Positions 10,585 through 56,884 of a stretch of 64,000 nucleotides of DNA are shown here, piece by piece; within the stretch, counting starts at the first letter, position 1, and every line of letters begins with the position of its first letter. Under the pieces are notes generated by a model. It was not told where the DNA came from, ran no database searches, and saw only the letters and a list, made by a program, of their open reading frames with translations. The DNA lies in IMG/VR virus record IMGVR_UViG_2923649072_000003, positions 1-64,000 of that record, one strand, 5' to 3'. The position numbers and the translations under genes were made by a program. This DNA comes from a virus. Lineage: Duplodnaviria; Caudoviricetes.

Positions 10585-11223
10585 ATGAAGTGGCGCTCAA
10601 TGCCGGCACCCCTGCCGACGGAAGAGTCGGACCTCGAAGGTCTGAGCATCGTTGCCCAGTGGACCCTCATGCGCCTCACGCTCTCCAATGACCTCAAGGC
10701 TGACGGATGCGCGCCTCTGATGATCATCAGGTGGGGCAACCGCTGGGCCGCCCAGCCCTGCATTGCTGAGGTTCAGGCGGGGCTCGCGGAGTTGGAGCAG
10801 GCGTCCCTTGTGGCAATGGATCACGGGAAGGGGGAGATCTTCCATCGGCGATTCTTTGCCTGGGAGCGAATCGGTAGGCAGCCGCGCCGGGTGGCCGCCG
10901 CCTGGGATCAATCCCTAACTCGCGGGGCAGTCATCAAGGAGCTGGCCCAAGACGCACTCATGGCCGAGGTTGCGGCCGGTGCGGGCGAGAGCCGGCCGCT
11001 AAGCAAGGGGCGTGCGTTCGTCTTCGAGCGCGACGGCTGGCGTTGCGTTGCGTGCGGATGGGGACCCGGTGATGCCGTGCCGCTGGCGCCTACCGGGCGG
11101 CCCATGCATCGCGGCCTTGAAGTGGATCACGTCTTTCCAAAGTCCAAGGGCGGCGTGGATGGTCCCGAAAATTTCCAGACGCTCTGCACGTCCTGCAATG
11201 CCAGCAAGGGGGCGCGGATCTGA
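10585..11223 (+). CDS. HNH endonuclease with N-terminal replication-initiator-like domain
   Basis: RDGWRCVACG...EVDHVFPKSKGG...NFQTLCTSCN..KG; RBS AGGAGG. Confidence 0.85.
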   Translation: MKWRSMPAPLPTEESDLEGLSIVAQWTLMRLTLSNDLKADGCAPLMIIRWGNRWAAQPCIAEVQAGLAELEQASLVAMDHGKGEIFHRRFFAWERIGRQPRRVAAAWDQSLTRGAVIKELAQDALMAEVAAGAGESRPLSKGRAFVFERDGWRCVACGWGPGDAVPLAPTGRPMHRGLEVDHVFPKSKGGVDGPENFQTLCTSCNASKGARI

Positions 11224-12215
11224 TGCGCATCCGAACCATCAAGCCCGAGTTCTGGACATCCGAAGACGTGGCGTCCATGGACTGGGAAACCCGCCTGGTG
11301 TTCCTGGGCCTCTGGTCTTACGTGGATGACAACGGGGTGGGTCGCGATAACGAGAAGCTGATCGTCGCCGACCTTTTCCCCTTGGAGGATGACCCTCGCG
11401 AGGCTCTCGCGAGAGTGTCGCGAGGGTTGCAGATCCTCGAATCAGGGGGGCAGATCGCGCGGTACGAAATCGGCGGCCGGAGGTTCATGTTCATTCGGCA
11501 GTGGGACAGGCACCAGAGGATCGATCGACCCGGCAAGATTCGCTACCCCCGCCCTGACCTGCAGGAAGTGCCGGATCCGCCAGACGATGAAGTTCATTCG
11601 CGAGAGTCTCGCGATGAACTCGCGCCTGGAACAGGGGAACAGGGGAACAGGGGAACAACTACTCGTTCATCTGACGATGAACCTGTCCGGGCCGGTGAAC
11701 AGGGCGTGCTGTTGGTTGCCGTACCGGCTCAGCGCAGCGGGGCCACGGAGCCAAAGAAGCGCCTGACCCTTGATGATCATTTCGAGGCCTGGTGGAAGCT
11801 CTACCCGCGCAAGCAGGCCAAGGGCGCCGCGCGCGACTCATGGGATCGCGCCCGGAAGCTGATCTCGATTGAGGAACTCCTCGCCGCCGTTCAGAGGCTC
11901 GTCGATGACCCCAACCTCCCCAGGAACCGGGCGAAGCTGCCCCTCCCGGCCACGTGGCTGAACCAGAAGCGGTGGGACGACGACCCGTACCCCGCCGACC
12001 AGGAAGCTCCCGGCCACCGCGGCGCCGACGGCGAACTCGACGAGGACACGATCGTCGCGGTTCTCGGCCGTGACACCTGGATGCCGCCAACCCCGCCCGA
12101 AGACCTCCAGCCAGGATCCGCAGCGTTCCGCCAGTGGAACCGAGACATATGGGCCGAACATCACCGCGACCGCCGACGGCAGGCCGAATCTGCTCTCGCG
12201 AGGAGGACCGCATGA
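11223..12215 (+). CDS. phage replication initiation protein
   Basis: MRIRTIKPEFW...DDNG.G N-terminus; FEAWWKLYPRK..K...PATWLNQKRW.D C-terminal domain; precedes DnaB. Confidence 0.8.
   Translation: MRIRTIKPEFWTSEDVASMDWETRLVFLGLWSYVDDNGVGRDNEKLIVADLFPLEDDPREALARVSRGLQILESGGQIARYEIGGRRFMFIRQWDRHQRIDRPGKIRYPRPDLQEVPDPPDDEVHSRESRDELAPGTGEQGNRGTTTRSSDDEPVRAGEQGVLLVAVPAQRSGATEPKKRLTLDDHFEAWWKLYPRKQAKGAARDSWDRARKLISIEELLAAVQRLVDDPNLPRNRAKLPLPATWLNQKRWDDDPYPADQEAPGHRGADGELDEDTIVAVLGRDTWMPPTPPEDLQPGSAAFRQWNRDIWAEHHRDRRRQAESALARRTA
11396..11656. repeat. putative replication origin iterons within the initiator gene
   Basis: TCGCGA at 11396/11407/11418 and 11598/11609 (11-bp period); near-palindrome 11591-11620; (GGAACAGG)x3.6 at 11628-11656. 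Confidence 0.6.
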
Positions 12216-13528
12216 CCGCCGAACTGCATGACGTTGAGGCCATCCACATCGGCCGATATGACCTCGAGGCTGAGCGTTACGTGCTCGGCGCGATCCTGGC
12301 GACCTCGGGCCGAGCGCTCTTCGAGATCGGCCAGCTCGCCCCTGCGGACTTCTTTCGCCCCGAGCATGAGCAGCTGTTCGCACTCATGCACGGCATGCAC
12401 GGGCGCGGTGACGTCGTAGAGGTCCAGGCGGTCGCGCAACGACTCGTCGGATCCCCCATTCGTGGCATTGGCCTGCCGCAGCTGGTCGACATGTTCTCGT
12501 CCTGCGTTACCGCGGCGAACGCGAGCTACTATGCGCAGACCGTGCGTCAGCTGGGCAGGCTGCGGCGACTGCAGGCGGCCTCGATGCGGATCGCGCAGAT
12601 GACGGGATCGTGCGACATCTCGGCTGTCGACGAGGTTGTGGAGCAGGCTCGTGCGGAGATCGACTCGGCGGGCGACAACTCGAGCACGGGCGAGATCAGC
12701 TCACTGGGCGAACTTCTGTCGACGGCGATGCAGCGATGGCAGTCGCCTGAGACGGGGATCCTGCCGACTGGGCTGCTGGACTTCGATGACATGCTGGCCG
12801 GCGGCCTGCGACCGGGGCATCTGCTGATCGTTGGTGCGCGCCCGGCTGTCGGGAAGTCCGTTGTGGCGTCGGTGATCGCCCACGCAGTGGCCCGCCGCGG
12901 AGTCGGAACGTTGTTCTGTTCGCTTGAGATGTCCCGGGACGAGGTGACCGACCGGGTTGCCGCAGACATTGCCAGCGTGGACGTGGGCCGCTTGACTCGA
13001 CGGGAACTGCGCCCCGAGGACTGGGAGCGGCTTAAGACTGCTCAGGCTTCAGCTTCAGGCTGGCCCCTGAAGGTGGTCGACAGGGCCGATCAGACGGTCT
13101 CCGGGGTCAGGGCCCGCGCGCGCGACGTTAGTCGCCGTAAGGGCGGCCTGGGGCTCGTGGTCGTTGACTACCTGCAGTTGATGAAGCCCTCCGACAGCAA
13201 GGCTCCCCGCCAGGAGCAGGTGGCGAGCATCTCGCGAGGCCTGAAGTTGTTGGCCAAGGAGATGCAGGTTCCGGTGGTGGCGCTGGCGCAGGTGAACCGT
13301 GGTCCGATGAATCGCACGGACAAGCGACCAGCCATGTCCGATCTTCGCGAGTCAGGGTCGATTGAGGCTGACGCAGACGAGATCGTCCTGCTCCATCGGG
13401 ATGACAAGGAGTCGCCGGGGGAAATCGAGTTCATCGTCGAGAAGAACCGCCACGGACGAACCGGGACGGTAGCTCTCGCGTGGGCGCCGCACTTCTCGCG
13501 GGTTGCCTCGATGGCGAGGGGGTTCTGA
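12212..13528 (+). CDS. dnaB: replicative DNA helicase
   Basis: GARPAVGKS Walker A, SLEM, VVDYLQL, LAQVNR, DLRESGSIE.DAD, KNRHG. Confidence 0.95.
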   Translation: MTAELHDVEAIHIGRYDLEAERYVLGAILATSGRALFEIGQLAPADFFRPEHEQLFALMHGMHGRGDVVEVQAVAQRLVGSPIRGIGLPQLVDMFSSCVTAANASYYAQTVRQLGRLRRLQAASMRIAQMTGSCDISAVDEVVEQARAEIDSAGDNSSTGEISSLGELLSTAMQRWQSPETGILPTGLLDFDDMLAGGLRPGHLLIVGARPAVGKSVVASVIAHAVARRGVGTLFCSLEMSRDEVTDRVAADIASVDVGRLTRRELRPEDWERLKTAQASASGWPLKVVDRADQTVSGVRARARDVSRRKGGLGLVVVDYLQLMKPSDSKAPRQEQVASISRGLKLLAKEMQVPVVALAQVNRGPMNRTDKRPAMSDLRESGSIEADADEIVLLHRDDKESPGEIEFIVEKNRHGRTGTVALAWAPHFSRVASMARGF

Positions 13529-13869
13529 TGTCCGCTCTGAAGTGGCATTGCCACCGTCGCCGTTTCGAGATCGCCGACGGTGAGGGTGTCGTCTACTGCC
13601 ACGAGTGGAAGGCGCGTTCCGGAGATCAGGGATCACGGCGCTTGTCGGAGATCCTGAACGAGGAGGAGGCGCGTTGGCAGGCCGCCCACCTCGCCTGTTT
13701 CAAGGACGATGAGGACCAGGGGTACGCGTGGGCGGTTGAGCGTTTGCGGACGCTGCCCGGGCTGCTCGAGTTCCATTTCCATGTGGCGGACAAGATGTGG
13801 TCTGCCGGTACGGATTTGAACTGGTTCACCTACGAGGCCGTTAAGCGCTGCTGGGCGGAGGCATCGTGA
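13528..13869 (+). CDS. hypothetical protein
   Basis: TGATG coupling. Confidence 0.55.
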   Translation: MSALKWHCHRRRFEIADGEGVVYCHEWKARSGDQGSRRLSEILNEEEARWQAAHLACFKDDEDQGYAWAVERLRTLPGLLEFHFHVADKMWSAGTDLNWFTYEAVKRCWAEAS

Positions 13870-14228
13870 CCCGCCCGATAACGGGCCGTAGCCCGCGTCA
13901 TCCCGCCCAGCCTCCTGGTCGCCGCGGCCGGCGCGCTGCCGTGGATCCGTTCCCGTGGCTGCCATTGGCTGCTGGTGCCGGAGCGTTCGTCGCCCTGGCG
14001 CTGGCGATCTCCGGAAGCTGGCTGTATTTGGCGGCTCTCGCGTGCGCCGGCCTTCTGGCCGCCGGCATGTGGTGGGCGATCCCCGGCCCGGTGCGTTGGG
14101 CGTCTGCTGCGGACACGGTGATCGAGCACCCGTCGGAGGTGGTGGCGCGTGCGCATGAGGTGTCGGGTACGACGACGGTTCACATGGAGAGGGGTGTGTG
14201 GGTGGGTGACGACGGGGCCCCGTGGTGA
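13866..14228 (+). CDS. membrane protein
   Basis: two hydrophobic segments; GTGA coupling. Confidence 0.55.
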   Translation: MTRPITGRSPRHPAQPPGRRGRRAAVDPFPWLPLAAGAGAFVALALAISGSWLYLAALACAGLLAAGMWWAIPGPVRWASAADTVIEHPSEVVARAHEVSGTTTVHMERGVWVGDDGAPW

Positions 14229-21468: not shown

Positions 21469-21499
21469 GACGCCCCGGCAGGAGGGTTGCCGGGGCGTC
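21469..21499. terminator. bidirectional terminator
   Basis: perfect 12-bp stem GACGCCCCGGCA/TGCCGGGGCGTC between convergent genes. Confidence 0.75.
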
Positions 21500-21512
21500 C
21501 GTCTGTGTGCGT

Positions 21513-21791
21513 TCAGGCGGTGCGCTGCAGGGGAATGTAGGCGAGCTGAGTGCCGGCCTGGGCGACGTACTCGCGGAAGGTCTCGATGGGGACGACGTTG
21601 CGGCCGAGAGCGGCGACAACGACGCCCGTGTGGTGGCGGGTGATGAGCGCGTAGAGCGATCCGGCCTGGATGATGCGGTGGCAGCCTGGGTCTTCTACGC
21701 CGGGCGGGACCGGGAGGGTGTGGAGCTTGGTGTCGCACCAGGGCTCGGTGTGCGTGGTCTCTCTGTCGTCGATGTCTGACGTCGCTGTCAT
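21513..21791 (-). CDS. hypothetical protein
   Basis: RBS GAGGGG; H..PWC...H motif. Confidence 0.5.
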   Translation of the reverse strand: MTATSDIDDRETTHTEPWCDTKLHTLPVPPGVEDPGCHRIIQAGSLYALITRHHTGVVVAALGRNVVPIETFREYVAQAGTQLAYIPLQRTA

Positions 21792-22166
21792 GGGTAGCAG
21801 CCCCCTCGTCGGCCGTGGTCCCGGCCCCTTGTGTCGTCGACCCTTCTCGGTGCCCGCTGGTGCCCGCATGCCCGCCATTGTCACTCGGTGAGTGAGACAT
21901 CCTGACCCGATACACGAGGGGATGCACGGGTGGTTACCCCCTCATTGCGGGAACGATCCAACATTTGAACACTCGGCCTACCGGCGGGTGCCACTCGGAG
22001 GTGCTACCCATCAGTCAAATGGATGGTGAATCGGTATTCATGTGGCCGATGGGGTTATGAGCTGATCGGCCACTCAGTATGCGGATTGCGCATCAGACAG
22101 GCCCTCATGGTCCGCCAATGCGCCAGGGGGAGACGCCAGAGGAGGTCGCACTCAAAGCTCGGATGC

Positions 22167-22421
22167 ATGGCCGACGACCTGCGCTCGGCGGTCGCCAGCG
22201 CAGTACGCGCCAGGCGAACCCTTGCCGGCCTCACGCAGGGCCAGCTCGCCGGCGCCATGGGAGTCGACCAGGCCGTCATCTCACGTATCGAAGCCGCGGT
22301 TCGTCCGATCCCACTCGGTGACGAACTGGTCAGGCTCTGCGAGCAGCTCGGCTGCACACTTCGGCAGCTCCTGGAAGACGCAAACCCCGAACAGCGTCGC
22401 GCGCTAGGAATCCGCGACTAA
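22167..22421 (+). CDS. XRE-family transcriptional regulator
   Basis: VRARRTLAGLTQGQLAGAMGVDQAVISRIE. Confidence 0.85.
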   Translation: MADDLRSAVASAVRARRTLAGLTQGQLAGAMGVDQAVISRIEAAVRPIPLGDELVRLCEQLGCTLRQLLEDANPEQRRALGIRD

Positions 22422-22693
22422 AGAGACGTGTCCTCGTACGGGGGGAGGCCGACAGCCTCACGATCGTCCGGGTCCAAGAGCTGCAGTAGCTGACGCAGCG
22501 GCCGGCCGAGCGCCCTGCAGACACCCGCGGCCTCTTCGAGCCTGATCGAGGCCTCGCCCATCTCGACGCGGGACACGTGCTTCTGGTCCCAGCCCTCGAC
22601 ACGTTCGGCGAGTTCGGCCTGAGATAGGCCGGCCGCGACTCGCCACATCTTCACGGCACGGCGGATGGCTAGGCGCCCGCTCGTGCTCGTCAC
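22418..22693 (-). CDS. XRE-family transcriptional regulator
   Basis: WRVAAGLSQAELAERV...VSRVEMG. Confidence 0.85.
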   Translation of the reverse strand: MTSTSGRLAIRRAVKMWRVAAGLSQAELAERVEGWDQKHVSRVEMGEASIRLEEAAGVCRALGRPLRQLLQLLDPDDREAVGLPPYEDTSL

Positions 22694-22813
22694 GCACCGA
22701 CATTCACAGCGGCCGGGACATCTTGTCCCATTCGCTGTCTGCGGTAGACGCTTATGGTCTAGCGTACGAGGCAGATCGTCACAGAGCAGTCACCGGCCGT
22801 CGGGGGAGACGCC

Positions 22814-31968: not shown

Positions 31969-32271
31969 ATGGAGAAGCTGCCCGCCTCGTTCACTGAGCT
32001 GCTCAGCGTGATGATCCAGTACGTCGAGCTCAGGGACCGACTTCGGGACGTCCGCGAGACCGCGGCCGGCGACCTCCACGAGCTCGGATGGCCAGCCCAG
32101 CGAATCTCGGACGAGCTGAAGGCGCAGCTCGAGGCGCTGAACTTGTCCGACTCCCAGCTTCGTTCGCTCGGCGTGTCCAGGGCGACGATCGATGCGGACA
32201 TCCGGTCCTGGCGCCGGGAGCAGGAGAAGGCCGTGACGTCCGGTCGGCGGAAGCGAGTGTCCGGCGACTGA
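31969..32271 (+). CDS. small putative DNA-binding protein
   Basis: LGVSRATIDADIR resembles an HTH recognition helix; TACCCT 6 nt upstream suggests a leaderless start. Confidence 0.5.
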   Translation: MEKLPASFTELLSVMIQYVELRDRLRDVRETAAGDLHELGWPAQRISDELKAQLEALNLSDSQLRSLGVSRATIDADIRSWRREQEKAVTSGRRKRVSGD

Positions 32272-33355
32272 CCGGGTGATTGTCCGGCCTTCCGATGTCC
32301 GGCCGCCGGGGTTGAGGTTGTCCGGTCTGGTGGTGCGCGGTTCCGGCCGGCCGCTGAGCCGCCCACTTCACCTCTCGGGACTTCCCGGATTGATCGCGCT
32401 GAGCTTGCTCTCTCTTCGGTGAGGAAGCTTGCCCCGCAAGCTGATCCACCATTTCCCAGCTCTGGGTGCACTGCAGCTTGAGACCTCCTCGGTAAACCTC
32501 GTCGGCCTCAAGCTGAGCTTACCCATGCTGTCAACTAGTTGCTAGCTGGCTGGCAACTAGCAACCTGCGAGGAAGCATCCTCGCTGACTCATCCTGCTGT
32601 CACTTGCGATTCGCGGGCCCGCCGCTGAGCCTGGTCGCTCGTGTCGCTCTGCTAATTGCTAGCGGATTGGTAATGTGAAGTCATGTCCGAGCATCACCGC
32701 AGGCTGGGCGTCGATTACGCCCGGGATCACGACCGCCGCATGTCGGAGATCTATCCCGACGGCGACGAGCCGTGCCACTACCTCGCACGCCTGGACCTCG
32801 GGCACTGCGAAGGGAAGGTGAAGAACGAGGAGCACGGTCAGATCGCGAACGAACGGCACCACGTCAAGGAGCTCGCCGACAACCGGGGCAAAGACAACGC
32901 GAAGGTCACGGTCCCCGCATGCAGGAGGCATCACCAGATCATGACCAACGCGAACAAGGCCGCCCGGGCAGGCAAGCCCGTCGGCGGACAGACCCCGACG
33001 AGTCGAGGCGGACAACGACGCCCATCGAAGGGCGGACAACCGGGCGGACAGAACCCGGACAACGGAGCGGACAGCCAGCCCGCCTGGGTGCGCCGTCACC
33101 TACTCGCCGCTGGCGCCGTCCTCATGATCGGTGCCGTCCTGTGGATGGCGGACATGTCCGGGGAGGCCATCCTCCTCGGCTCGTGCACCGCGGTCTACGG
33201 GGCGGCGCTGGCCTACTACTTGAACGTCCGCTGGACCCGCGCCCGGGACCTTGCCGAAGTCCACTCGCTCGCTGTCCGGTCGATCAAGGCCGACCCGCGG
33301 ATGGTGCGTGTCGACCGGCCCCGGTGGCGGTGGCAGGCGGGCATGAAGGCGGACA
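32258..33355. repeat. divergent arrays of (G/C)CGGACA octamers
   Basis: TGTCCGG[C/T] at 32258/32281/32296/32319; GGCGGACA at 32983/33007/33031/33043/33147/33348, variants at 33054/33066. Confidence 0.65.
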
Positions 33356-35031
33356 TCGTCCGGTGCCGGATCTTCTTCCCCGGTGTCGAGTACATGACCG
33401 ACCCCGGCACGCGGGCCCGAGTCGAGAAAGACTTCTGGGTCGCGCTCCATGCCCGCATCGATTGGCCGGCTCATGCGCTCCACCCGCACTTCGATGTCCG
33501 AGTCGTGCCCGTGGATGCCGGGCCGGGTCGCGGACCGGTGGCCGTCGAGGCCGAGCCGCAGGAGGAGACCCGCGAGAAGATCCGCACCACGATCGAGGAG
33601 GACCTTCACAAGACGATGAAGTTGAAGGAGAAGCAGAAGCTGACCTTCACGATCGTCGAGCGTGACGCCGAGGGCCCGCTCGTGTGCACGCTGGACTACC
33701 CGGCCGGATTCCAGGACGGGTCCGAGGAGGCGTGCTACCTGGTCCAGGAGCGGATCAGTGCCCAGCTCGACGGGATCCGGTTCGTCGCTCAGTGGGATCG
33801 CCGGGCCGAGAAGAAGCGGCTGACCCTGACTCGTCGGCCCGAGCTGCCAGCCGAGGTGCCGTTCCGGTTCCCGGCCCCGGGGGAGCGGCTGGACCCGATG
33901 GTCATTCCGCTGGGGATCGATGAGACGCAGCGCGAGCGGGCCTGGAACCTTCGCGTTCACCCGCACATGATCTTCGCCGGGGCGACCGGGGCCGGGAAGT
34001 CATACACGCTCGCCGAGCTGATCTACCAGCTCCTCATCCGCGGGTGGCAGCTCATCCTGATCGACGGCAAGGGGACCACCTTCGCGCCGTTCCGGCGGTG
34101 GCCCGGCGTTGTGGGCTACGGCCTCGCGAACGCGCCTGAGTCAATGGCGCACTGGATGGAGCAGGGCAAGTACATCACCGAGGAGCGGTATGACCAGGCC
34201 ATCGATCACGACGTCGACCCGGCGAGTTTCCCCCGCCTGATGGTCCTGATCGATGAGCTGACCGAGGCTAACGAGAACGTCGCGGAGTGGTGGAAGGAGC
34301 TGCGTTCGAAGGAGAAGGAGCTGCCTCGGGAGTGCCCGGCGATCGGGGCGTGGGCTTCGGTGGCCCGGAAGGGTCGCGAGGGTGGAGTGCACCTGCTGGT
34401 GGCTACACAGCAACCCAACGCCTCTGACAACACGTTCGGGTCGACGGAGACGAAGGCCAACCTTGCAGGGCGGTTCTTCCTTGGCCCGACCGAACAGCAG
34501 TCAGCGCTCATGATGTTCGGGCGCTCGACCCTGGGCCGAGACATCCCCGAGGACACGAAGGGCCGCGGGACGCTGAAGGTGTCACCCCAGGAGCCCGGGG
34601 TCGAGGTACAGACGTACTTCACGCCGCGCCCCAAGCCTTCCGGCGCGATCGCCCCTGAGCATGAGACGTTCTTCGCGAAGCTCATGCCGCTCGTGGAGGC
34701 GGCGCAGGCGAAGGTGAAGCGGGTCGCCCCGGCTGGCGGGTCCATCGACATGCGCCCGGATCCTCGGTTCCGTGAGATCGAGCCGACGAAGCCGGCTCGG
34801 CAGCGAACCCTTCCACTCGAGCAGACCCCGACCATCGACGTGTGGGACCTGGCGGCCCGGCTGAAGGACGAGGACGTCGTGGAGTGCTGGCTGGACGGCG
34901 AGCGCCTAAAGGTCGTCGAGGTCATCGGTGAGGACGAAGTGGAGATCACCCACGTCGACGCGGAGGGCAAGCAGCAGACACTCATCGTGGACGACTCGGC
35001 CCGGTTCGAGCTGCGAGGTGAATCGTCGTGA
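32683..35031 (+). CDS. FtsK/SpoIIIE-family (TraB/TcpA-like) DNA translocase with N-terminal HNH-like domain
   Basis: 2 TM; PHMIFAGATGAGKS, LIDGKG, LMVLIDE, RKGREGGVHLLVATQ; N-terminal C..C..HHV..C.RHH. Confidence 0.85.
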   Translation: MSEHHRRLGVDYARDHDRRMSEIYPDGDEPCHYLARLDLGHCEGKVKNEEHGQIANERHHVKELADNRGKDNAKVTVPACRRHHQIMTNANKAARAGKPVGGQTPTSRGGQRRPSKGGQPGGQNPDNGADSQPAWVRRHLLAAGAVLMIGAVLWMADMSGEAILLGSCTAVYGAALAYYLNVRWTRARDLAEVHSLAVRSIKADPRMVRVDRPRWRWQAGMKADIVRCRIFFPGVEYMTDPGTRARVEKDFWVALHARIDWPAHALHPHFDVRVVPVDAGPGRGPVAVEAEPQEETREKIRTTIEEDLHKTMKLKEKQKLTFTIVERDAEGPLVCTLDYPAGFQDGSEEACYLVQERISAQLDGIRFVAQWDRRAEKKRLTLTRRPELPAEVPFRFPAPGERLDPMVIPLGIDETQRERAWNLRVHPHMIFAGATGAGKSYTLAELIYQLLIRGWQLILIDGKGTTFAPFRRWPGVVGYGLANAPESMAHWMEQGKYITEERYDQAIDHDVDPASFPRLMVLIDELTEANENVAEWWKELRSKEKELPRECPAIGAWASVARKGREGGVHLLVATQQPNASDNTFGSTETKANLAGRFFLGPTEQQSALMMFGRSTLGRDIPEDTKGRGTLKVSPQEPGVEVQTYFTPRPKPSGAIAPEHETFFAKLMPLVEAAQAKVKRVAPAGGSIDMRPDPRFREIEPTKPARQRTLPLEQTPTIDVWDLAARLKDEDVVECWLDGERLKVVEVIGEDEVEITHVDAEGKQQTLIVDDSARFELRGESS

Positions 35032-39596: not shown

Positions 39597-40025
39597 ATGA
39601 GCGAGACCAGCACCCAGCCGACCGTCACGCCCGCAGCCCGCATGCTGCTCGACCGTTCACGCGGAAGCCTCACACAGGCCTGCAGTTCACGAGTCACGGC
39701 CGAGCGGTACGTCCAGGCCCACCTCGCGGCACTGCGTGCCGGGGTCGCGGTTCTCGCAGGGGTGAGCAATCCCGGCCAGCGGGGAGTCAGCGTCTGGGAG
39801 AGCTTGTCCAGCTACGTTCCCAGTCTGGCCAAATGGGCGGCCTACTTCGCGTCCACGGGGCAACGCCGCGCCGCTGTCGAAGCTGGCCGCACCGACACCG
39901 TGTCCGCCCGCGAGGCCCACGACCTGCTCCGTGACGCCGAAGCGTTCTACCACCTGGTCGAGTCCATGCTCGGTCTGCCCTACCAGCAGGTGCTTCCGGC
40001 GACACTGCCGGCCATCGAAGACTGA
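39597..40025 (+). CDS. SAV_6107-family HEPN domain protein
   Basis: ERYVQAHLAALRA...SVWE.L...WAAYF...RAAVEAG...REA.DLLRDAE.F. Confidence 0.8.
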   Translation: MSETSTQPTVTPAARMLLDRSRGSLTQACSSRVTAERYVQAHLAALRAGVAVLAGVSNPGQRGVSVWESLSSYVPSLAKWAAYFASTGQRRAAVEAGRTDTVSAREAHDLLRDAEAFYHLVESMLGLPYQQVLPATLPAIED

Positions 40026-42656: not shown

Positions 42657-43355
42657 CTAGCGGACGGCGAGCGTTCCCTGCTGTTCGCGCATGAGTCGCT
42701 TGTGGAGCTCCGCCAGTCCCTTCCCGGTGACACGGGCCGTGGTCGACAGCTCAGGCTCGCCGGTCTTCGGGTGGTCGAACACGCCGACCTTCGCCGCGAG
42801 CCGACCATTTTCGATCTCCCGCTGGTACGGGTGGCCGGTCCGGTCGACCCACTTGATCTGCCGCAGGTACGCCATCAACCGGTTCCGGCCGGTGATGACA
42901 CCGCCACGGTTCAGAGCCTTCGCTGCGTCGCCTAGAGCCAGGTCGGAGCCGGCTGCGATCATCCGCTGAGCGATCACCGCGAGGGGCTCGAGCGCCGCGA
43001 CTTTCGCGGTGGCCTCGATCGCCTTCGTCTCGGCGACATCGGCTCGGAGCTCAGCGGCCTCCCGGGCTTCTGCTTCGGCGATCACCATGAGGGCGAGGGC
43101 CTTGCGGTCGACCTGCGTCACGTCGACCTCGGCCGGCTGGCGTTGGGTCGGGATCTGGCCGCGACGGAGGCTGGGAAGGACCTCGCCAAAGACCCACTTC
43201 TGAAAGCCCTCGACGGTGGCGCGAGTGTTTAGATCCTTCACTCGGTTGCTCTGCCTCTGACCAAGTACCCGATAGAAGCCGGGTTCGGTGATGTACCAAA
43301 CACGCTGGTCGCCACCGGGGGTGGGAGCTGTCTCCCATCCCTTGTCCTCGTCGGG
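42657..43355 (-). pseudogene. phage antirepressor (BRO-N plus ANT/KilAC), 5'-truncated
   Basis: PDEDKG...TPGGDQ...ITEPGFY...FQKWVFGEVLPSLR; AK.L...GRNRL..YLR...VTGKG; in-frame stop just upstream. Confidence 0.8.
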
Positions 43356-46541: not shown

Positions 46542-46814
46542 ATGTCCAGTACCACGACCATGCTCGAGCTCCCGATGGACCACGAGCAGATCCAGGCGAT
46601 GCTGTCCCTCGCGATCGGCGCGCTCGGTGAATCCCGGCTCCTGATCGACACTCTCGGCCGCACCGGATACGCCGTCGACCCCGAAAAGCTCCACCAGGCG
46701 CAGTACGGGCTCATGCAGATCCTCAACCACGTTCCCGACGGGCATCCGGCGCCGAAGCTGTCGCAGGTGCACGCCGCGCGGGTCGAGACCGCGATGACGG
46801 GGGTGACCCAGTGA
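46542..46814 (+). CDS. hypothetical protein
   Basis: GC3 bias, coupled to next gene. Confidence 0.55.
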   Translation: MSSTTTMLELPMDHEQIQAMLSLAIGALGESRLLIDTLGRTGYAVDPEKLHQAQYGLMQILNHVPDGHPAPKLSQVHAARVETAMTGVTQ

Positions 46815-47248
46815 GGCGGAACCGGCGGGTCATGACGATCCCGTGCACGGTGAAACTCAGGCAGGCTCCGGCGCGGCACATGCAGCCGGTGATGTTCTCG
46901 TTCGATGCGGCCGAGCCGTTCGTCGTCCGGCTGGAAGTCCAGACGTCAGTGGAGGGAATCTTCGCGAAGTTCAATGTGTCACGGGAACTCCTGGCCAACG
47001 GATCGGGCGTGGCCGCGGGCGACCTGAAGCACCGGGTGTACCCGGATGACGGGCAGATCGTCATCAACCTGACCGACGAGAAGGGCACCATCACGTTCCG
47101 GGCCCTGCGCATCAACATCGACGCGTTCCTCGGGCAGACGTACCAGATCCGGCCCGTGCAGGCCGACGCCCCGTCCCTCGACGTCGACCCCAGTCTCGCG
47201 GCGGCTCTCGATGCGTGGATCGAGCACAGTCTGAAGGAGGCGTCGTGA
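46811..47248 (+). CDS. SsgA-like protein (SALP; sporulation/cell-division family)
   Basis: F...EPFVV.L...SRELL..G...AG....RVYP...I.L....G...AFL.QTY...LDVD pattern. Confidence 0.75.
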   Translation: MRRNRRVMTIPCTVKLRQAPARHMQPVMFSFDAAEPFVVRLEVQTSVEGIFAKFNVSRELLANGSGVAAGDLKHRVYPDDGQIVINLTDEKGTITFRALRINIDAFLGQTYQIRPVQADAPSLDVDPSLAAALDAWIEHSLKEAS

Positions 47249-50408: not shown

Positions 50409-50912
50409 ATGTCCTGGGAGCCAGTGATTCCTGGCGTGTTCGCTCTTGGGGGTGTGCTCTTGAGCATGACCGGAGGAGCCGTGTCTGCGACTTACAGGAA
50501 CCGTCGGGCGGACCGGGCTGAGGTTAGGCGTGGTCGCGATCAGAGGCTTGTGGCCGTCTCGGTGGAGCTGTCGACGTTCGTGGCGAACATGATTCCGATC
50601 GTGTCTGACGATCGGCTCACGCTGGGTTCGCTACTGTGGAAACAAGCCCACCAAGAGCGTCAGCACCTCCTGGAGCGCAACGTGCGGGTGTACGCGAACG
50701 TTCGGACACTTCGTTTTGAGTTGCTGAGGTTCGGCCCCGACCGGGGGGTCCCGCTTGTCGACGAGGCGCTGACCCTGATGGAGAAATCGCAGCACGCGGT
50801 CACCCGCGACCCGATAGGTCGCGTTCCTGACAAGGCCGCGAATGCAGTGCGCGAATGGCTGGTTCGCTTAAGGGGCATCGCTGACGATCTCGCAACGCTG
50901 GCGCCAAACTAG
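50409..50912 (+). CDS. membrane-anchored moron-like protein
   Basis: N-terminal TM then helical domain. Confidence 0.55.
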   Translation: MSWEPVIPGVFALGGVLLSMTGGAVSATYRNRRADRAEVRRGRDQRLVAVSVELSTFVANMIPIVSDDRLTLGSLLWKQAHQERQHLLERNVRVYANVRTLRFELLRFGPDRGVPLVDEALTLMEKSQHAVTRDPIGRVPDKAANAVREWLVRLRGIADDLATLAPN

Positions 50913-50916
50913 CGAA

Positions 50917-50947
50917 ACGGCCCACCCCCGGCGCGAGGGTGGGCCGT
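50917..50947. terminator. bidirectional terminator ending the late operon
   Basis: ACGGCCCACCC/GGGTGGGCCGT stem. Confidence 0.7.
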
Positions 50948-50968
50948 ATCGAGCAAGCCGGGCATGCC

Positions 50969-52579
50969 TTACGAGACCAGGCCGCGTCTCGTGAGGTTCT
51001 CCATGGTGAGCTGCGCGACAGACAGTGCCACCCCCGCGCCCGTGACCGACATTCGGAACTGCATCGTCGTCGCGCCAGCCGGCACGGTCTCCTCTGCGGT
51101 CCAGACCGACCAGGACGGCACGTCGGCTGTCAGTTGCAGGTCGGTGAGGTTGCCGGGCGTGACGCCGCCGCCGTAGAAGACTTGCAGGCGGACGGCTCCC
51201 GAATTGATGTCCAGGCCGGACACTTTGAGCATGAACCCGACCCGGATGCGGTCTCCGGCAACGAAGTCGGTGCCGACGGCAAGGGCGGGTCCCTCGCCGA
51301 TGCGGATCGCGTATGCGCCTCCCGTGATGGTGAAGATGTTCCCCGCGATCCCGGTCTCCGTGGTGATGCTGCCCGTGGAGGTCGGCTCGCCGTAGAACCC
51401 CCAACCGGTGGGCGCGGTGGCCCCATTGACGGCGGGCAGGAGCGCGCCGTTCGAGGTGCCTCCGGTCTGGTTCTGGCGGGCGCCGAGCATCGTGCCGGTG
51501 TATCTAGGGTCGATCGACATCCACCCGAGTGCGGCGCGGGGGAACATGTCTTGCAGTTTCGACCACGCATTGACGCCCATGTCTCGCTGCGTGAGGGCGT
51601 CAGGGTGGACGCCGTCTTGCGTCATGCCCGCCTTGAAAAGCCCGGTGGCCGCGTCGGTCAGGATGAGGTACTGGTCGACGAGGGGCAGGCCGTACTTCTG
51701 CGCGAGACCTAGCGCGACCTGACGGATCGAGCTGATCTGCGTGGCGAGAGGCACCGCGGGGGAGACGCCGGGAATGTTGCCGGGAACGTTCTCGGTCGAG
51801 TTGCCCGACCCGAGAACATCGGCGGTGGGCGGCTGCTGGGCCGTGGGGGTCAGGCCGTTGTCGACGAAGTAGGGGTACGTGTCGGCGCGTCCGTAGCCTT
51901 CCCCGATCCCGCCGATGAACCCCCACGTCGATGATCCCTGAGTCCGCCGGTAGATGTGCCAGCGTGCGACGTTCTGCCGCGGCCATTTCAGGTTCACGGT
52001 GCCGGTGGCCGAGAGAGTCACGGGCACGGTCGCGACCGGTAGCCCTTCCTGGCCGCCCGCGCCGCCGGACACCCTTCCCGTGATGGTGTATTCGTAGCTG
52101 CCGGCTGCGAGAGTGCCGGAGCTGGTGAAGGTCGTAGCGGTGATCGAAGCCGTTGACGGAGAAACAAATTTCGGCATGCCCCGGGGCGGGGGAGTCAGGA
52201 GCCCGACAGCTATGCCCTTGGCCCGGGCCTGCTGGATCATCGATTCGAGACTGGCGAGAGTCTCCGTGGTCCAGTTGATGTCGTTCGTGCCGGTCGCGAT
52301 CAGGATGATCCTCGAGTTCTCGCTCAGTACGTCGTTGGGGAATCGCGCGGCGATAGCCGTCGTGCGCTGGCCGCCGATCGCGTAGTTACGGACCAGCCGC
52401 ATCCGCCCGCCGGACGCGAGAGCCATGTACGTCGCCCACGTGTCACCGTGACTGTTGTTGGTGGCCGACGAGTTTGCCTGGGTGATGCTGTCGCCCGTGA
52501 CGACCGTGGAGTAGCCTGGCTGAACACTCTTCGGCACCCCGCCACTCGGCGTAATGCGGGCGGAGCTGAATGCGCTCAC
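50969..52579 (-). CDS. SGNH/GDSL esterase tail-associated protein with inserted beta domain
   Basis: GDSIT, GTND, DGVHP; CBM-like C-terminus. Confidence 0.8.
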   Translation of the reverse strand: MSAFSSARITPSGGVPKSVQPGYSTVVTGDSITQANSSATNNSHGDTWATYMALASGGRMRLVRNYAIGGQRTTAIAARFPNDVLSENSRIILIATGTNDINWTTETLASLESMIQQARAKGIAVGLLTPPPRGMPKFVSPSTASITATTFTSSGTLAAGSYEYTITGRVSGGAGGQEGLPVATVPVTLSATGTVNLKWPRQNVARWHIYRRTQGSSTWGFIGGIGEGYGRADTYPYFVDNGLTPTAQQPPTADVLGSGNSTENVPGNIPGVSPAVPLATQISSIRQVALGLAQKYGLPLVDQYLILTDAATGLFKAGMTQDGVHPDALTQRDMGVNAWSKLQDMFPRAALGWMSIDPRYTGTMLGARQNQTGGTSNGALLPAVNGATAPTGWGFYGEPTSTGSITTETGIAGNIFTITGGAYAIRIGEGPALAVGTDFVAGDRIRVGFMLKVSGLDINSGAVRLQVFYGGGVTPGNLTDLQLTADVPSWSVWTAEETVPAGATTMQFRMSVTGAGVALSVAQLTMENLTRRGLVS

Positions 52580-53790
52580 GGGGCGGCAGCCGCAACGAGA
52601 TCCGGAAGATTACTGACGTCGAAGACGCCCACCTCACCGATCCGAGCCTGTACGTTCTGACCAGTCGGCAGGCCTACCTGCATCACGAGGTTGAGTCCCG
52701 TGACTCCGGCGGGGACGGTGTAGATGCTCTGGATGAAGTCGGGGACCCTCGGGATGAGGGCGCCGAAGTTCGCGCGGGACACGAACGCCTGGTCGTGCAG
52801 GCGTAGAGCAACGGTCGCGGTCGGGCCGGCGCCCTGGGCGGCGTTGTAGTAGCCGCCCGCGATGTCGACGACCTGCATCCGCGCGGTGATGAGCAGCTTC
52901 TGGCCAGGCGTGACGGTGCCGACCGGGTAGACGAAGTAGCGGTTACCTCCGGAAGCTGTTGCATCAAAGGCCATCTGAGCCCATTTGCCGAACCGCAAAG
53001 TCCCAGAAGTGTCGGTCACCACGGAGTATGTCGGGGCCGTGCCGGTGCCCCCCGGCTGCTCGTACCAACCCGTCGTGTTCGTGAGGAACTGCGGGTTGGT
53101 GATCATGTTGAACGGGCCGCCGACTGAGTCGACGATGTGTGGCACGTCTGGGGTCAGCAGCTCGAGAAACGCCTTGACGAAGGCTTCAGCGATCTTCTGG
53201 TGGCCGACCGTCTCAGGGTGGATGCCGTCGGTGTCGTAGCCGCCCGCCATGCCGTAGCCGCCGCCGCTGACCAACGCGCTGTAGACGTCCGCGATCTTGA
53301 TGCCCTGGGTTGGCGCCCAGATCCGCAACCATGCGTTGAACTGGGCGACCCGCAGGTGATTCGCGGCCGGGCGGGATCCGCCGAGCGGCGGCGTCGTGCC
53401 GATGATCAGCGTTATGCCGTCCTGCCTCGCCTTCGCCGCGATGCCCTTGATGGCCGCTGCGTACCTTGAGAGGTCCTGCTGCCCGGCATCGTTCGTGCCC
53501 GCCATGAGCATGACGACCTGGGCGCCGTTCGCGCGCACGTCCATGTCGTACCGGGCGAGCATCTCGTCCGACCGCTGTCCCGGGTAGCCGCGTTCGATCC
53601 AGTTCTGGCTGATCCGCCCGCCGAGCATCTTGGCGACCTGGTCCACGAATCGCTGCCCCGCGCTGGCGGTGCTGCCATGGGTGATGCTGTCGCCGAGGAA
53701 GACCAGCTTCGCGCCCGGCGGCGGAGGCTGGGTCGGCGTCCCGGGCCAGCGCGACTGCTGCGGCGCTGAGGTCACGATGCGGGCGGTCAT
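52576..53790 (-). CDS. SGNH/GDSL esterase tail-associated protein
   Basis: FLGDSIT, GTND, DGIHP; true start ATG 53790 coupled to upstream stop. Confidence 0.85.
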   Translation of the reverse strand: MTARIVTSAPQQSRWPGTPTQPPPPGAKLVFLGDSITHGSTASAGQRFVDQVAKMLGGRISQNWIERGYPGQRSDEMLARYDMDVRANGAQVVMLMAGTNDAGQQDLSRYAAAIKGIAAKARQDGITLIIGTTPPLGGSRPAANHLRVAQFNAWLRIWAPTQGIKIADVYSALVSGGGYGMAGGYDTDGIHPETVGHQKIAEAFVKAFLELLTPDVPHIVDSVGGPFNMITNPQFLTNTTGWYEQPGGTGTAPTYSVVTDTSGTLRFGKWAQMAFDATASGGNRYFVYPVGTVTPGQKLLITARMQVVDIAGGYYNAAQGAGPTATVALRLHDQAFVSRANFGALIPRVPDFIQSIYTVPAGVTGLNLVMQVGLPTGQNVQARIGEVGVFDVSNLPDLVAAAAP

Positions 53791-54479
53791 GCGGGCAGCT
53801 CCGCCCCGCAGAGGGTGAAGGTGCACGCCGGTGCGGTGCCCGCGCCTGCCGGGCCGCCGGAAGTAGTGGCCGTGCCCGTGTCGGTGTAGCTGAGGGTGCT
53901 CTGGCCGGTGACCGCGGCCAGCAGGCTCAGGTTGCCGCTGCTCGTGCCGCGGTACACCTTGTAGCCGGTGGCGCCGCCGACCTTCGGCCAGGACAGAGCG
54001 ACGGACGAGGTGGAGCCGGTGACCGCGACCGGGCCGATCTCGAGGCAGGCCGGCGACTCCCCCTTCGCGTTCGTGGCCGCGTACCGGTAGAAGTAGCTCC
54101 CGGCCGCCAGGGTGCCGCCGGTCGAAGACGCGACGGACGACATCTGCGGCGCCATCGGGATCGAGTCCGACTGCCCCCACAGGGTGTCACCGGGCCGCAG
54201 AGTGGTCGGCACGTCGCTCTCGTAGGTCGAGTTCGCCGGGATGACCAGCCCACCGACGAGCGACTGACTGCCGTTGGCGGTCTGACCCTGCTTCACCTGC
54301 AGAAGCTGGACAGCCACGGAACTGTTGGTGGGGTTCGCGATACGGATGCTGGTGACCTGTGTGCGCGCACCGCCACCGGTGGCTCCGGGCGCGGTGTAGA
54401 CGGTTTCGCCAGCGACCGCGGGCTGGTCGAGATAGAGCCGGTCGAGGTTGACCCCGAGGGCCGAGAGCGAGATTGGCAT
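53787..54479 (-). CDS. structural protein with FN3-like domain
   Basis: GTL.AGSYFY...GES...LSW..V.GATGYKVYRGT..YTDTG. Confidence 0.65.
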   Translation of the reverse strand: MPISLSALGVNLDRLYLDQPAVAGETVYTAPGATGGGARTQVTSIRIANPTNSSVAVQLLQVKQGQTANGSQSLVGGLVIPANSTYESDVPTTLRPGDTLWGQSDSIPMAPQMSSVASSTGGTLAAGSYFYRYAATNAKGESPACLEIGPVAVTGSTSSVALSWPKVGGATGYKVYRGTSSGNLSLLAAVTGQSTLSYTDTGTATTSGGPAGAGTAPACTFTLCGAELPA

Positions 54480-54489
54480 GGGGGTCTCC

Positions 54490-54798
54490 TCAGAGTCCGA
54501 TCAGGGAAAAGATGAGGGCGGTACCGGCGGCGTCTGTAGCCGAGATGTTTCCGGCCGTCCCGCCGGGACCGTAGGTGCCGGGGAGTGCGCCGAAGGCCGT
54601 ATTCACGTCACTGGTGTTCGCCTTGCCGGTCAGGGCGCTGGCTGCGCCGCTCGCCGTCGACTGTGCGGCACCAGCTGCTGCGAGCGCCTCGTCAGCGACC
54701 TGGGCTGCGGCAAAGATGCCGTCTTGCATGTGCTGGTCGCGGGCGGCGTTGTACGGGGTCTGCCCGTCGGTGGCGGGTGCGGGCTTCGTGTAGGTCAT
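54490..54798 (-). CDS. small tail fibre/adaptor protein
   Basis: TPYNAARDQHMQDGI N-terminal motif, Ala-rich. Confidence 0.55.
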   Translation of the reverse strand: MTYTKPAPATDGQTPYNAARDQHMQDGIFAAAQVADEALAAAGAAQSTASGAASALTGKANTSDVNTAFGALPGTYGPGGTAGNISATDAAGTALIFSLIGL

Positions 54799-54809
54799 GT
54801 GAGTTTCCC

Positions 54810-56339
54810 TTACAGGTCGCCGGGGTTCACGCCGAGCGCGGTCAGGTCGAGGATGTCAAGGCAGCCGAGGCGGAACTTGACGTGCGCTCCGGTGGGTAGG
54901 CCAACCTTCCATTCGATCTTGCATGTGGTCACGCCCGTCGGGAGCCGGAACATCGTCAAGAACGGACCGGGGGTCGGGTCCCACGTGTTCGTCGCCCCGG
55001 AAATACCCGTGTATAGGACGCTTCCGTTGTCGGACAGGACACTGACGCCCCACCCGCCCGCGCCAGTCCCGAACGCTGCGACACCACCGGAGATGTCCTC
55101 AAGCTCAACCTGAGCGACCAGCGCGCACAAGCCGCCGGCGGTCAGCCCTGTCATGCCCTTGGCCAGCCCCGTGAAACCTCCTTGAGTGGCCGTGCAGTCG
55201 AGTTGCGCCCACTTCCCGGCAGCCAAAGCGGAACCAGCGGCCGGATCCACGCAGGCATAATCAGGCGTCGTCATCGTCGAGCCGAAAAGCGCCTGATAGC
55301 CAGTCGGGCCGCCGCCAGCAGTCGCCATCAGCGGGTTGCTGTTCACGCCCACACCAGCGGACGCGATCAGAGGCGCGACGGGCGGACGGACCGCCGCGAT
55401 TGCGGGCCCGATCACCTTGCCCATAGCGATGTGACCGGTGTTGACCGGGTGGATGCCGTCGCCGTTGTGGTCGCTGCGGATCCAGCCCGTCGCAGGGTCG
55501 ACCATCGCCCGGTGCGTGTCGGCGAGTGGCACGTCGTTCGCGGGCGCCCACTGCCTCAGCCAGAGGTTCTGCGCGTTGATGAACGCCCGGCGGTCGCTTG
55601 CGTTCGCGACGGTGGACCCGACGGGCGGCACCGTTCCGATGACCATGGGGATGCCGAGAGCGCGGACCTTCGCGCGGATCGCCTTGATGTTCGACTGCCA
55701 CTGCGCCAGCGTGTTACGGCCGAAGTCATTCGTCCCGGCGAGCAGGAACACGCCGCCGGGCTTCGTCGCGATCACATCCGTGTCGAACCGGTTGAGGAGC
55801 TGCCCCGAGTCCTCCCCGGGGAAACCGCAGATGCTGGAAATACCGCCAGCGGGCGGGTTCTGGGCGCCCGGAGCGGCAGGCGACCGAAGGTTCGCGACGC
55901 GTGCCGTGCCGCCCGCCGTTGAGACCGCCACGTAAGGGAAACTCACGCCCGGGTCTGCGTTCGCGCCGTTCGTGATGCTGTCCCCGAGGAAAGTCCACGC
56001 ACGCCCGGCGATCAACCGGGTCGGCGCGGCGCTGCTCGTGTACGCGAACGCCAGGGATGGGCTCGCCGCGATCTGCGGCAGCGACATCGTGGCGGCGGCA
56101 CCGAGACCAAGGTTGTTACGGGCCGCCACGGCCGAGGGGAGGTCGGCAAGGTTCGACGACTTCTGCACCGACCCGGCGATGCGGGTGTCGCCCTGGATCG
56201 CGGCGTCTACGCTTTCGCTGAGCTGTTCCTGCGAGATGACGCGGGCCAGAGCAGCTGCAATCGCGGCGTTCTGGATGACAGAGGCGTTACCCGGGTCGAG
56301 ATGGACGCCGGAGCCCACGAGGGAGCCTGGTGCGGTCAT
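54810..56339 (-). CDS. tail fibre/spike with SGNH esterase domain
   Basis: NLADL..ARNNLGLG fibre motif; FLGDSIT, GTND, DGIHP. Confidence 0.85.
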   Translation of the reverse strand: MTAPGSLVGSGVHLDPGNASVIQNAAIAAALARVISQEQLSESVDAAIQGDTRIAGSVQKSSNLADLPSAVAARNNLGLGAAATMSLPQIAASPSLAFAYTSSAAPTRLIAGRAWTFLGDSITNGANADPGVSFPYVAVSTAGGTARVANLRSPAAPGAQNPPAGGISSICGFPGEDSGQLLNRFDTDVIATKPGGVFLLAGTNDFGRNTLAQWQSNIKAIRAKVRALGIPMVIGTVPPVGSTVANASDRRAFINAQNLWLRQWAPANDVPLADTHRAMVDPATGWIRSDHNGDGIHPVNTGHIAMGKVIGPAIAAVRPPVAPLIASAGVGVNSNPLMATAGGGPTGYQALFGSTMTTPDYACVDPAAGSALAAGKWAQLDCTATQGGFTGLAKGMTGLTAGGLCALVAQVELEDISGGVAAFGTGAGGWGVSVLSDNGSVLYTGISGATNTWDPTPGPFLTMFRLPTGVTTCKIEWKVGLPTGAHVKFRLGCLDILDLTALGVNPGDL

Positions 56340-56876: not shown

Positions 56877-56884
56877 GTTGCCTC

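Follow-up and report, generated by a model that had tools for sequence, protein, structure and literature searches.

A divergent HNH-type domain predicted at the N-terminus of a conjugation-type FtsK/SpoIIIE ATPase from an actinomycete element

An FtsK-like DNA translocase encoded among tailed-phage genes appears to carry a nuclease-type domain ahead of its membrane anchor. The gene is located at positions 32683-35031 (+ strand) of the window, which is the whole 64,000-nucleotide stretch of DNA analysed here and represents positions 1 to 64,000 of the IMG/VR virus record IMGVR_UViG_2923649072_000003 (Duplodnaviria; Caudoviricetes); the element to which it belongs resides in a cultured actinomycete with a complete genome. 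The evidence supports the N-terminal module of the predicted protein being a genuine but divergent HNH (His-Me finger) domain, placed before two transmembrane helices. The gene itself is best explained, from sequence comparison, as encoding the coupling ATPase that pumps DNA in an actinobacterial conjugation module of the VirB4 type. A first-pass annotation had proposed such an N-terminal fusion of an HNH-like domain to a conjugative FtsK/TraB translocase, and the fusion is upheld both by profile-profile comparison of the N-terminus (hhalign P 1.4e-6) and by a match of the remainder to PF01580. A Pfam-invisible HNH domain ahead of a TcpA/TraB-like conjugative pump is a new combination of known parts.

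The domain spans residues 1-95 (32683-32967, + strand), as delineated by hhalign, MAFFT alignment, AlphaFold2 (AF2) and ESM Atlas. Translation confirms the series of Cys and His residues that had been read before the transmembrane helices in the first-pass annotation (C-x10-C ... HH...C..HH): the module reads C31-x10-C42, then E57-R-H-H-V-K-E-L-A-D-N-R-G-K-D-N-A-K-V-T-V-P-A-C80-R-R-H83-H84-Q-I-M-T. The first pair of histidines, H59-H60 (32857-32862, + strand), aligns to the HH of the CE(I/A)HHV motif in 31 PF01844-positive domains, and C80-R-R-H83-H84 (32920-32934, + strand) aligns to the C-x-R-H-H of HNH templates. The roles of general base, metal ligand and zinc ligand can be carried over from known HNH enzymes. 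H60 would then be the general base and H84 a ligand of the catalytic metal, and C31 (32773-32775, + strand) and C42 (32806-32808, + strand) would, by their position, bind zinc together with C80 and H83.

Two full-length homologues were found, a protein encoded in a genome of the same genus (G003; 756 aa, 38% identity, E 7.4e-95) and a metagenome protein (P0006; 866 aa, 26% identity). All three proteins start with (M/V)S-x-(N/H)-H and share the entire module. The residues on which the HNH assignment depends are retained in both homologues, with C31, C42, H60, C80, H83 and H84 (and the C80-R-R-H83-H84 motif as a unit) invariant and H59 replaced by Asn in P0006. The positions identical in the three proteins are C31, H32, Y33, C42, G44, E57, R58, H60, V61, E63, L64, D66, T76, A79, C80, R82, H83, H84 and T88. 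The public names of the G003 protein are 'FtsK/SpoIIIE domain-containing protein' or 'hypothetical protein', with the HNH part unannotated, and P0006 falls in a cluster of four proteins all named 'hypothetical protein'.

Mainly on the strength of profile comparison, the module very probably has an HNH fold. The three N-termini were compared by hhalign with a set of 32 actinobacterial CxRHH-type HNH domains gathered from related genomes, and matched them with a probability of 90.4% (P 1.4e-6, score 37.1) in the catalytic register, with ERHHV on CE(I/A)HHV, DGG on GG and ACRRHH on LCPRHH. Two accepted HNH subfamilies score much the same against one another (37.2), and none of 100 column shuffles came near 37.1 (maximum score 20.6, best E 0.0032); the reversed alignment scored 12.2. 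Single members matched in the same register (P 6.8e-4, 6.1e-5 and 1.4e-4). Comparison with a second HNH subfamily, the 165-aa canonical type, gave a weak match (P 0.024, probability 2%). The closest relatives of the module appear to be the CxRHH-type HNH domains that are common in actinobacteria.

Other comparisons point in the same direction. Unsupervised MAFFT aligns the entire module in a 34-row alignment (A3) of the three family N-termini and 31 HNH domains (one of the 32 was dropped as occupying a duplicate place); C31, C42 and C80 are invariant across the 34 rows, and R13, D28, H59, H60, H83 and H84 are conserved in at least 90% of them. A six-frame search of 49 genomes of the family with the three-row profile returned HNH domains as three of the five best non-family matches (E 0.003-0.016 per genome), each of the type C-E-x-H-H-V ... 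G-G ... N-L ... C-x-R-H-H; the remaining 15 of the 18 inspected matches were unrelated or Arg-rich wrong frames. When the window protein was compared with ESM Atlas, seven of the eight structure rows were clusters with PF01844 on 55-100% of their members (TM-score by query 0.50-0.59). The Atlas feature search placed it at 0.91-0.92 to small HNH clusters, mostly from phages, and recovered the same clusters with P0006 (0.92-0.94).

The module and the CxRHH-type domains share the order R-D-x-x-C ... C ... E-x-H-H-V ... G-G ... C-x-R-H-H, but differ in several respects. The spacer of the first Cys pair is 9-14 residues in the module family as opposed to four, the Asn is lost, and the length of the segment from GG to C80 differs, being three residues shorter in G003 and P0006. 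PF01844 matches all 31 HNH templates in the alignment at E <= 0.01 but none of the three family members, which are also set apart by fusion to a membrane ATPase. CxRHH-type domains often form the C-terminal part of 450-900-aa proteins, which we take to be of the DUF222/13E12 type.

Downstream of the module, the protein has the layout of a membrane-anchored DNA pump. The single open reading frame (ORF) at 32683-35031 encodes 782 aa, according to both the ORF list and the translation, and comprises the HNH-like domain, a linker, two transmembrane helices, an FtsK/SpoIIIE ATPase and a C-terminal region of ~90 residues, for which no family match was found. PF01580 (FtsK_SpoIIIE) matches at E 3.3e-12 with 46.8 bits against a cut-off of 24, its best stretch being residues 406-506, and residues 390-647 match the FtsK/SpoIIIE-like family phrog_1358 (E 2.5e-27); the TrwB/VirD4 model is sub-threshold (E 0.0064, 15.9 bits against 20.5). 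A motif search locates the ATPase core at 33979-34257 (+ strand), from the Walker A motif GATGAGKS (residue 433) to the Walker B motif MVLIDE (residue 520). The linker, residues 96-137 (32968-33093, + strand), is rich in Gly, Gln, Pro and Arg in the translation and varies in length among the three homologues, being longer in G003 and almost missing in P0006; the ratio of nonsynonymous to synonymous substitution rates (dN/dS) between the window and G003 is ~1 for residues 97-185. Two transmembrane helices, residues 138-160 and 162-180 (33094-33222, + strand; Kyte-Doolittle average of at least 1.5 over 19 residues), follow with a five-residue loop, DMSGE, and the same scan detects the helix pair in all three homologues. 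Since both sides of the pair are Arg-rich and only this five-residue loop lies between the helices, both termini are likely cytoplasmic, which would put the N-terminal module on the motor's side of the membrane.

The gene's position in an operon agrees with a role in DNA transfer. Upstream on the same strand lie genes for a 982-aa VirB4-like AAA_10 ATPase (E 3.2e-29), a 639-aa membrane protein, a small protein and a VanY-type hydrolase; the translocase gene is the last large gene of this VirB4 operon and is followed by genes for membrane, coiled-coil and secreted proteins. Plasmid operons of the same kind, with the same core gene order, are found in Rhodococcus fascians pFiD188 and a Cutibacterium acnes plasmid, and encode a VirB4-like ATPase, a membrane protein of ~700 aa, a peptidoglycan hydrolase, small proteins and an FtsK-like protein. 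Their FtsK-like proteins (WP_052049378.1 and WP_180231045.1, respectively) are 28-30% identical to the window protein in the ATPase half (E 2e-30 to 8e-28) and likewise have two transmembrane helices ahead of the ATPase. The N-terminus of each, however, is a short tail that lacks the Cys/His module, as is also the case at the related loci L022-L024. From these comparisons, the HNH addition so far seems confined to the window, G003 and the P0006 cluster, as an accessory gained by a small clade.

The fusion is very rare in the data searched. An exhaustive phmmer search with residues 1-100 against 1.84 billion representative sequences returned only P0006 and P0002, the latter a frameshifted product of the same gene. 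A near-identical copy of the gene in a second public assembly (P0002 and P0010-P0012) is represented by this 609-aa frameshifted product and by fragments, suggesting that sequencing or assembly differs between the two in the ATPase part; the N-terminus is identical. No further domain-bearing member was present in a 401-genome sample of the class, in which the next-closest relatives of the ATPase (G076, G208 and G367; E 5e-70 to 3e-59) carry transmembrane helices behind a short tail that lacks the Cys/His module, and none beyond G003 was present among the 49 genomes of the family. A word-indexed protein search with the profile yielded 293 candidates, none at E <= 10, and tblastn searches of 50,697 phage records with the three N-termini matched 4, 6 and 2 of them, none below E 0.5 and none annotated as HNH. 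Pattern scans and tblastn flagged 159 stretches in species genomes, 82 in IMG/VR and 194 in metagenomes, none of which was confirmed. Eight relatives of the ATPase were found in IMG/VR, none with an HNH domain, and the only matches among cultured phages were to ATPase cores in 10 mycobacteriophage records. Comparison by shared words likewise brought up nothing resembling this stretch outside its own genome. A full-text literature search on HNH fusions to FtsK or TraB in conjugation retrieved no description of one, nor is one described in the accessible portions of two of the papers that it listed (PMC2440964, PMC10853773). A separate family of FtsK-like ATPases was encountered in low-GC viral contigs of IMG/VR (L127 3648-5810, L129 3744-5819 and L132 3753-5714), with a conserved N-terminal module 'HWSYSS...F..P..(W/F)K' that looks like a PD-(D/E)xK/Cas4-type nuclease and is a candidate second nuclease-pump fusion.

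The window protein combines features of several known DNA-transfer systems. The FtsK-like coupling proteins of Gram-positive type IV secretion systems (T4SS), such as TcpA of Clostridium perfringens pCW3, have N-terminal transmembrane helices and an FtsK/SpoIIIE ATPase and are encoded beside a VirB4-like ATPase; by description, this is the layout of the window protein and its operon. TcpA-type proteins have no nuclease domain that we know of, and to our knowledge their systems have a relaxase of their own. TraB (Tra) of Streptomyces plasmids and of the integrative and conjugative elements of actinomycetes (AICEs) is described in the available text of two sources as a membrane-associated, FtsK-like hexameric pump that reads short clt repeats (PMC3429521, PMC5365140). 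As in TraB systems, short repeat arrays lie at the window gene, and P0006 has an FtsK_gamma winged helix; TraB nonetheless acts without VirB4, whereas the window gene is preceded by the VirB4-like ATPase, membrane protein and hydrolase genes. No nuclease domain is described for TraB, and no C-terminal helix-turn-helix (HTH) match was found in the window protein. The name TraB, as used in the first-pass annotation, therefore fits insofar as the protein is an FtsK-like membrane pump, but not with respect to the C-terminal winged helix, which was not detected. In P0006 and P0009, FtsK_gamma occupies residues ~788-846 (E 5.7e-20), giving the architecture HNH, two transmembrane helices, FtsK ATPase and gamma; neither FtsK_gamma nor another HTH was matched in the window protein, the G003 protein or P0013.

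Nucleases acting with DNA pumps are known from two other settings. Phage HNH endonucleases pair with the terminase ATPase for cutting at defined sites, as exemplified by HK97 gp74. Small phage HNH clusters are the Atlas neighbours of the window module, though proteins of the gp74 type differ from it in being separate and soluble, in acting in capsid packaging and in having no membrane anchor. A precedent for a nuclease working with an FtsK/HerA-type pump is provided by TdtA of Thermus thermophilus, a relaxase-free pump of this type for which, according to the part of the source available, efficient donation needs cis-encoded nucleases, one of them preferentially nicking (PMC5365140). These nucleases are described there as separate proteins of other folds (a type IIG restriction enzyme and a NurA-like protein), unlike the fused HNH domain, and the Thermus system has no T4SS and relies on uptake by competence, unlike the VirB4-type module of the window.

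Paired repeat arrays at the 5' part of the gene are candidates for a protein-binding cis locus. The window has 14 copies of the sequence GGCGGACA where 5.55 would be expected; none of 100 shuffles reaches 14, and six of the copies lie within 32983-33355. An array of seven (C)GGACA copies runs from +303 to +467 of the gene (32985-33154, + strand), in the region coding for the linker and first transmembrane helix, and is a candidate clt-like cis site; CGGACA has nine copies in 1.3 kb against 0.67 expected. A repeat search also found four inverted copies (- strand, reading TGTCCGG on the + strand) at -425 to -364 from the start codon (32258-32325). G003 has a corresponding pair at its homologous gene (locus L072, G003:C2 ~21490-22800), in which seven copies of TGGACA span +281 to +496 and five copies of TGTCCA span -807 to -678. 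Each element therefore has two oppositely oriented arrays of a 6-8-nucleotide motif, CGGACA/TGTCCG in the window (32140-33360) and TGGACA/TGTCCA in G003, with the variable base (C or T) co-changing in both arrays of each element. Because the copies span two reading frames in the window and three in G003, it is the DNA motif that is kept, not a peptide repeat. By this analysis the arrays look like a clt-like loading site. TraB recognises 8-bp repeats at clt, as stated in the available text of two papers (PMC5365140, PMC3429521).

Recognised relaxases were sought alongside the module. Relaxase (PF03432), TrwC (PF08751), Rep_trans (PF02486) and Replic_Relax (PF13814) have no match within the window; for the first three, a genome-wide scan at E <= 1 was equally negative. 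Pfam comparison of 34 of the 69 predicted window ORFs gave no relaxase, the others, about half, being mostly <130 aa and relaxases of new types being able to escape such a scan. Of the 269 plasmid records that encode a related FtsK-like protein, MOB-suite classed 169 as non-mobilizable, meaning that they have no recognised relaxase, 96 as mobilizable and four as conjugative.

The idea, put forward in the first-pass annotation, that the domain is a built-in nickase or DNA-recognition domain replacing a missing relaxase is thus sustained in part. An HNH-type fusion is present and no relaxase was matched, but relatives with the same operon (pFiD188, the Cutibacterium plasmid and L022-L024) lack the domain, and most relatives without it also lack a recognised relaxase, so the proposed replacement is weakened and stays conjectural. 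The same operon without HNH or a recognised relaxase implies that this type of machine works, or at least persists, without either. Nor was a separate HNH ORF found near the FtsK-like gene in 18 related loci, 16 of which were covered with only 1.5-kb flanks, and the nuclease is hence not a general requirement of the machine. As the domain is HNH-like and not HUH, a relaxase-like role would in any case be one of analogy, not of membership.

Within these limits we infer a nuclease activity, its substrate and a role in transfer, alongside the topology and zinc binding set out above. The leading proposal, tentatively held, is that the HNH domain nicks or cuts the element's own DNA, probably at or near the GGACA arrays that flank the gene's 5' portion, allowing the tethered ring ATPase to engage. 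Such a cut would supply the ring with a free end or strand for threading, and the flexible 40-residue linker would tether the HNH domain beside the motor. A more specific version, which we consider possible but doubtful, is a self-sufficient pump in which the tethered HNH domain would nick or cut site-specifically at the GGACA-array locus, where this overlaps the 5' coding region of the pump's own gene, and the same polypeptide would thread the DNA and pump it through the VirB4-type channel.

The main competing explanation is that the HNH fold is non-catalytic and serves as a zinc-finger DNA-binding or loading module, reading the GGACA arrays in place of a winged helix such as FtsK gamma or the TraB HTH. 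This is a possibility that we rate below the nuclease proposal. The central Asn of the HNH core is missing in all three members, its column in the 34-row alignment being filled by K74 in the window protein and by Q in P0006 and left as a gap in G003, while the nearby N72 of the window is not conserved among homologues; the first-pass annotation was right that the canonical Asn is absent. Loss of this Asn lowers the activity of known HNH enzymes, and it counts against an active nuclease here. A reader would also suit the element-specific arrays (CGGACA as opposed to TGGACA), which need a specific reader, and the window and G003 proteins have no detected DNA-reading domain, whereas P0006 has FtsK_gamma. 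On the other hand, H60 and H84 are invariant, residues of this type usually being the first lost in inactivated HNH domains, and position 59 stays His or Asn, both able to bind metal. P0006, moreover, has the HNH module as well as gamma, so the HNH is not a simple substitute for gamma.

An active nuclease could alternatively serve another purpose, such as attack on resident or competing DNA in donor or recipient, the exclusion of related elements, or a step of the prophage life cycle. HNH nucleases are common as phage conflict and packaging factors, the Atlas feature matches of the module are mostly to small phage HNH clusters, and the conjugation module has phage replication genes (DnaB, phrog_2149) on one side and genes for tail or baseplate (phrog_6) on the other. 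Such a purpose is nevertheless unlikely: fusion to a membrane-anchored pump, and the place of the gene at the end of the VirB4 operon, tie the domain to DNA translocation, and no immunity-like gene was recognised adjoining the translocase gene.

The HNH assignment itself has to be weighed against a further explanation, in which the likeness is convergent and the module is another small Cys/His zinc domain, for example a protein-protein adaptor. Several observations count against the assignment. No Pfam, NCBIfam or PDB-sequence model matches the N-terminal module: PF01844, PF13391, PF13395 and PF14279 have no match at E <= 10 in any of the three N-termini, a whole-genome PF01844 scan at the same threshold lists six places with none at this module, and the three-row profile finds only the irrelevant 6fnu_A among PDB sequences (E 0.096). 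The sole Pfam match, to a eukaryotic CXXC zinc-binding family, is sub-threshold (E 0.04). Nine weak PHROG families were matched over the three homologues, and the three annotated HNH are themselves weak, namely phrog_333 (E 0.015, in two of three members), phrog_144 (0.064) and phrog_7785 (0.26). A hidden Markov model of the three sequences run against 1178 ORFs ranked HNH ORFs 3, 6, 13 and 29, with two non-HNH frames at the top. The conservation statistics are also thin, because only three family members are known.

Structure prediction bears on both sides. AF2 on the three homologues alone gave a pLDDT of 46 and no strands, and this first, three-row model was discarded. On the 34-row alignment AF2 predicts a helix at residues 3-23, strands at 57-61 and 75-79 and a helix at 81-95, with a pLDDT of 66.8, and the two His pairs fall in the expected elements of the beta-beta-alpha order (residues 57-95). 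As to the beta-beta-alpha-Me fold asked for in the first-pass annotation, the order is predicted, but confidence is moderate, with pLDDT dropping below 50 at residues 62-70, and the structure searches are weak. The model is not independent and is nearer to a homology model, because 31 of its 34 rows are HNH domains. With this model Foldseek found no PDB or BFVD match at E <= 0.001, its one PDB match having E 5.6 and its 25 BFVD matches E 1.2-9.4, five of them named HNH or EndoVII. A wide VIA-align search brought 29 of 48,161 chains to Z >= 2, with the Lsr2 dimerisation domain at the top (best Z 3.1). The ZRANB3 HNH domain, T4 endonuclease VII, the GVE2 HNH endonuclease and EcoKMcrA took ranks 3-6, and six of the rows represent nucleases of the HNH/His-Me type (5mkw, 1e7d, 5h0o, 6ghc, 7rwm and 6ghs), a weak pointer given that unrelated treble-clef zinc fingers (FYVE, GATA, ZAD) reach comparable Z. 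Convergence is improbable all the same, in view of the profile-profile match in the correct catalytic register with clean shuffle and reversal controls, the predominance of HNH domains among the best non-family matches in the 49 genomes, and their predominance among the Atlas structure rows.

The last alternative concerns the start codon. The ATG at 32683 is the earliest possible start, an in-frame stop lying three codons upstream; no Shine-Dalgarno sequence precedes it, and a scan of 32250-32750 for sigma-70 consensus and terminators found no sites. Both the window (TAATGT) and G003 (TAGCTT) have a TANNNT hexamer 6 nucleotides 5' of the start codon, which would fit a leaderless mRNA. GC content at third codon positions (GC3) is 0.87 across the gene, and codons 1-96, with GC3 of 0.88 and second-position GC (GC2) of 0.39, resemble the remainder. 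Compared with G003, residues 2-96 have a dN/dS of ~0.45, jointly the lowest with the C-terminal segment among the five segments compared, although this value is only rough because dS is near saturation. That translation begins downstream, leaving the Cys/His stretch as untranslated leader, is very unlikely and hardly to be entertained, for the missing Shine-Dalgarno and sigma-70 sites that favour it are outweighed by a start and whole domain common to three homologues at 26-55% identity, by the codon and substitution values and by the hexamer. The same upstream region has a palindromic CTAGTTGCTAGC / GCTGGCAACTAG element at 32535-32560, with a related second copy at 32652-32673 just 5' of the start codon; a similar GCTAA..GCTAG..TGGTA stretch lies ahead of the start in G003, and these may be operator or promoter elements.

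The conjugation genes are flanked by phage genes on both sides. Those on the left (window 1-14000) encode a DUF3799 nuclease, a C5 methylase, an HNH protein, a replication initiator (phrog_2149) and DnaB, and those on the right (50900-64000) encode a baseplate wedge protein (phrog_6), tail proteins and three SGNH esterases; the closest Phage_integrase match is ~21 kb past the window end. The left-hand HNH protein (10417-11223, + strand; PF01844 E 7.7e-9, HNH_5 E 4.4e-9), directly 5' of the replication initiator, is canonical and unrelated in sequence to the translocase N-terminus. G003 keeps the window genes from ~15.6 to 49.4 kb in the same order, a block that includes genes for a HEPN SAV_6107-like protein (39597-40025, E 2e-28), a KilAC antirepressor (42657-43241, E 7e-17) and an SsgA-like protein (46811-47248, E 9e-11). 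That the conjugation module forms a single unit with its flanking phage genes was considered and is not favoured, given that G003 shares only this block at E <= 1e-5; past the module, G003 does nonetheless carry a gene for an SGNH esterase and a 1228-aa ORF on the opposite strand.

Conjugation is taught as the work of either a relaxase with a T4SS, transferring a single strand, or TraB alone, transferring double-stranded DNA. Many actinobacterial plasmids with VirB4 and FtsK-like proteins have no recognised relaxase (169 of the 269 records, including pFiD188), and the step that opens their DNA for transfer is what is at issue, as is the analogous step for circular double-stranded DNA in TraB systems. 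Since the HNH subtype escapes Pfam, fusions of this kind are probably under-counted. If the domain is inactive, the HNH fold would have been recruited as a sequence reader instead of the FtsK gamma domain. If the self-sufficient pump is correct, it would represent a relaxase-independent start of conjugative transfer, on an element situated among tailed-phage genes. A nuclease-carrying pump beside a lineage-specific repeat locus would offer a direct handle on how DNA is opened in these systems.

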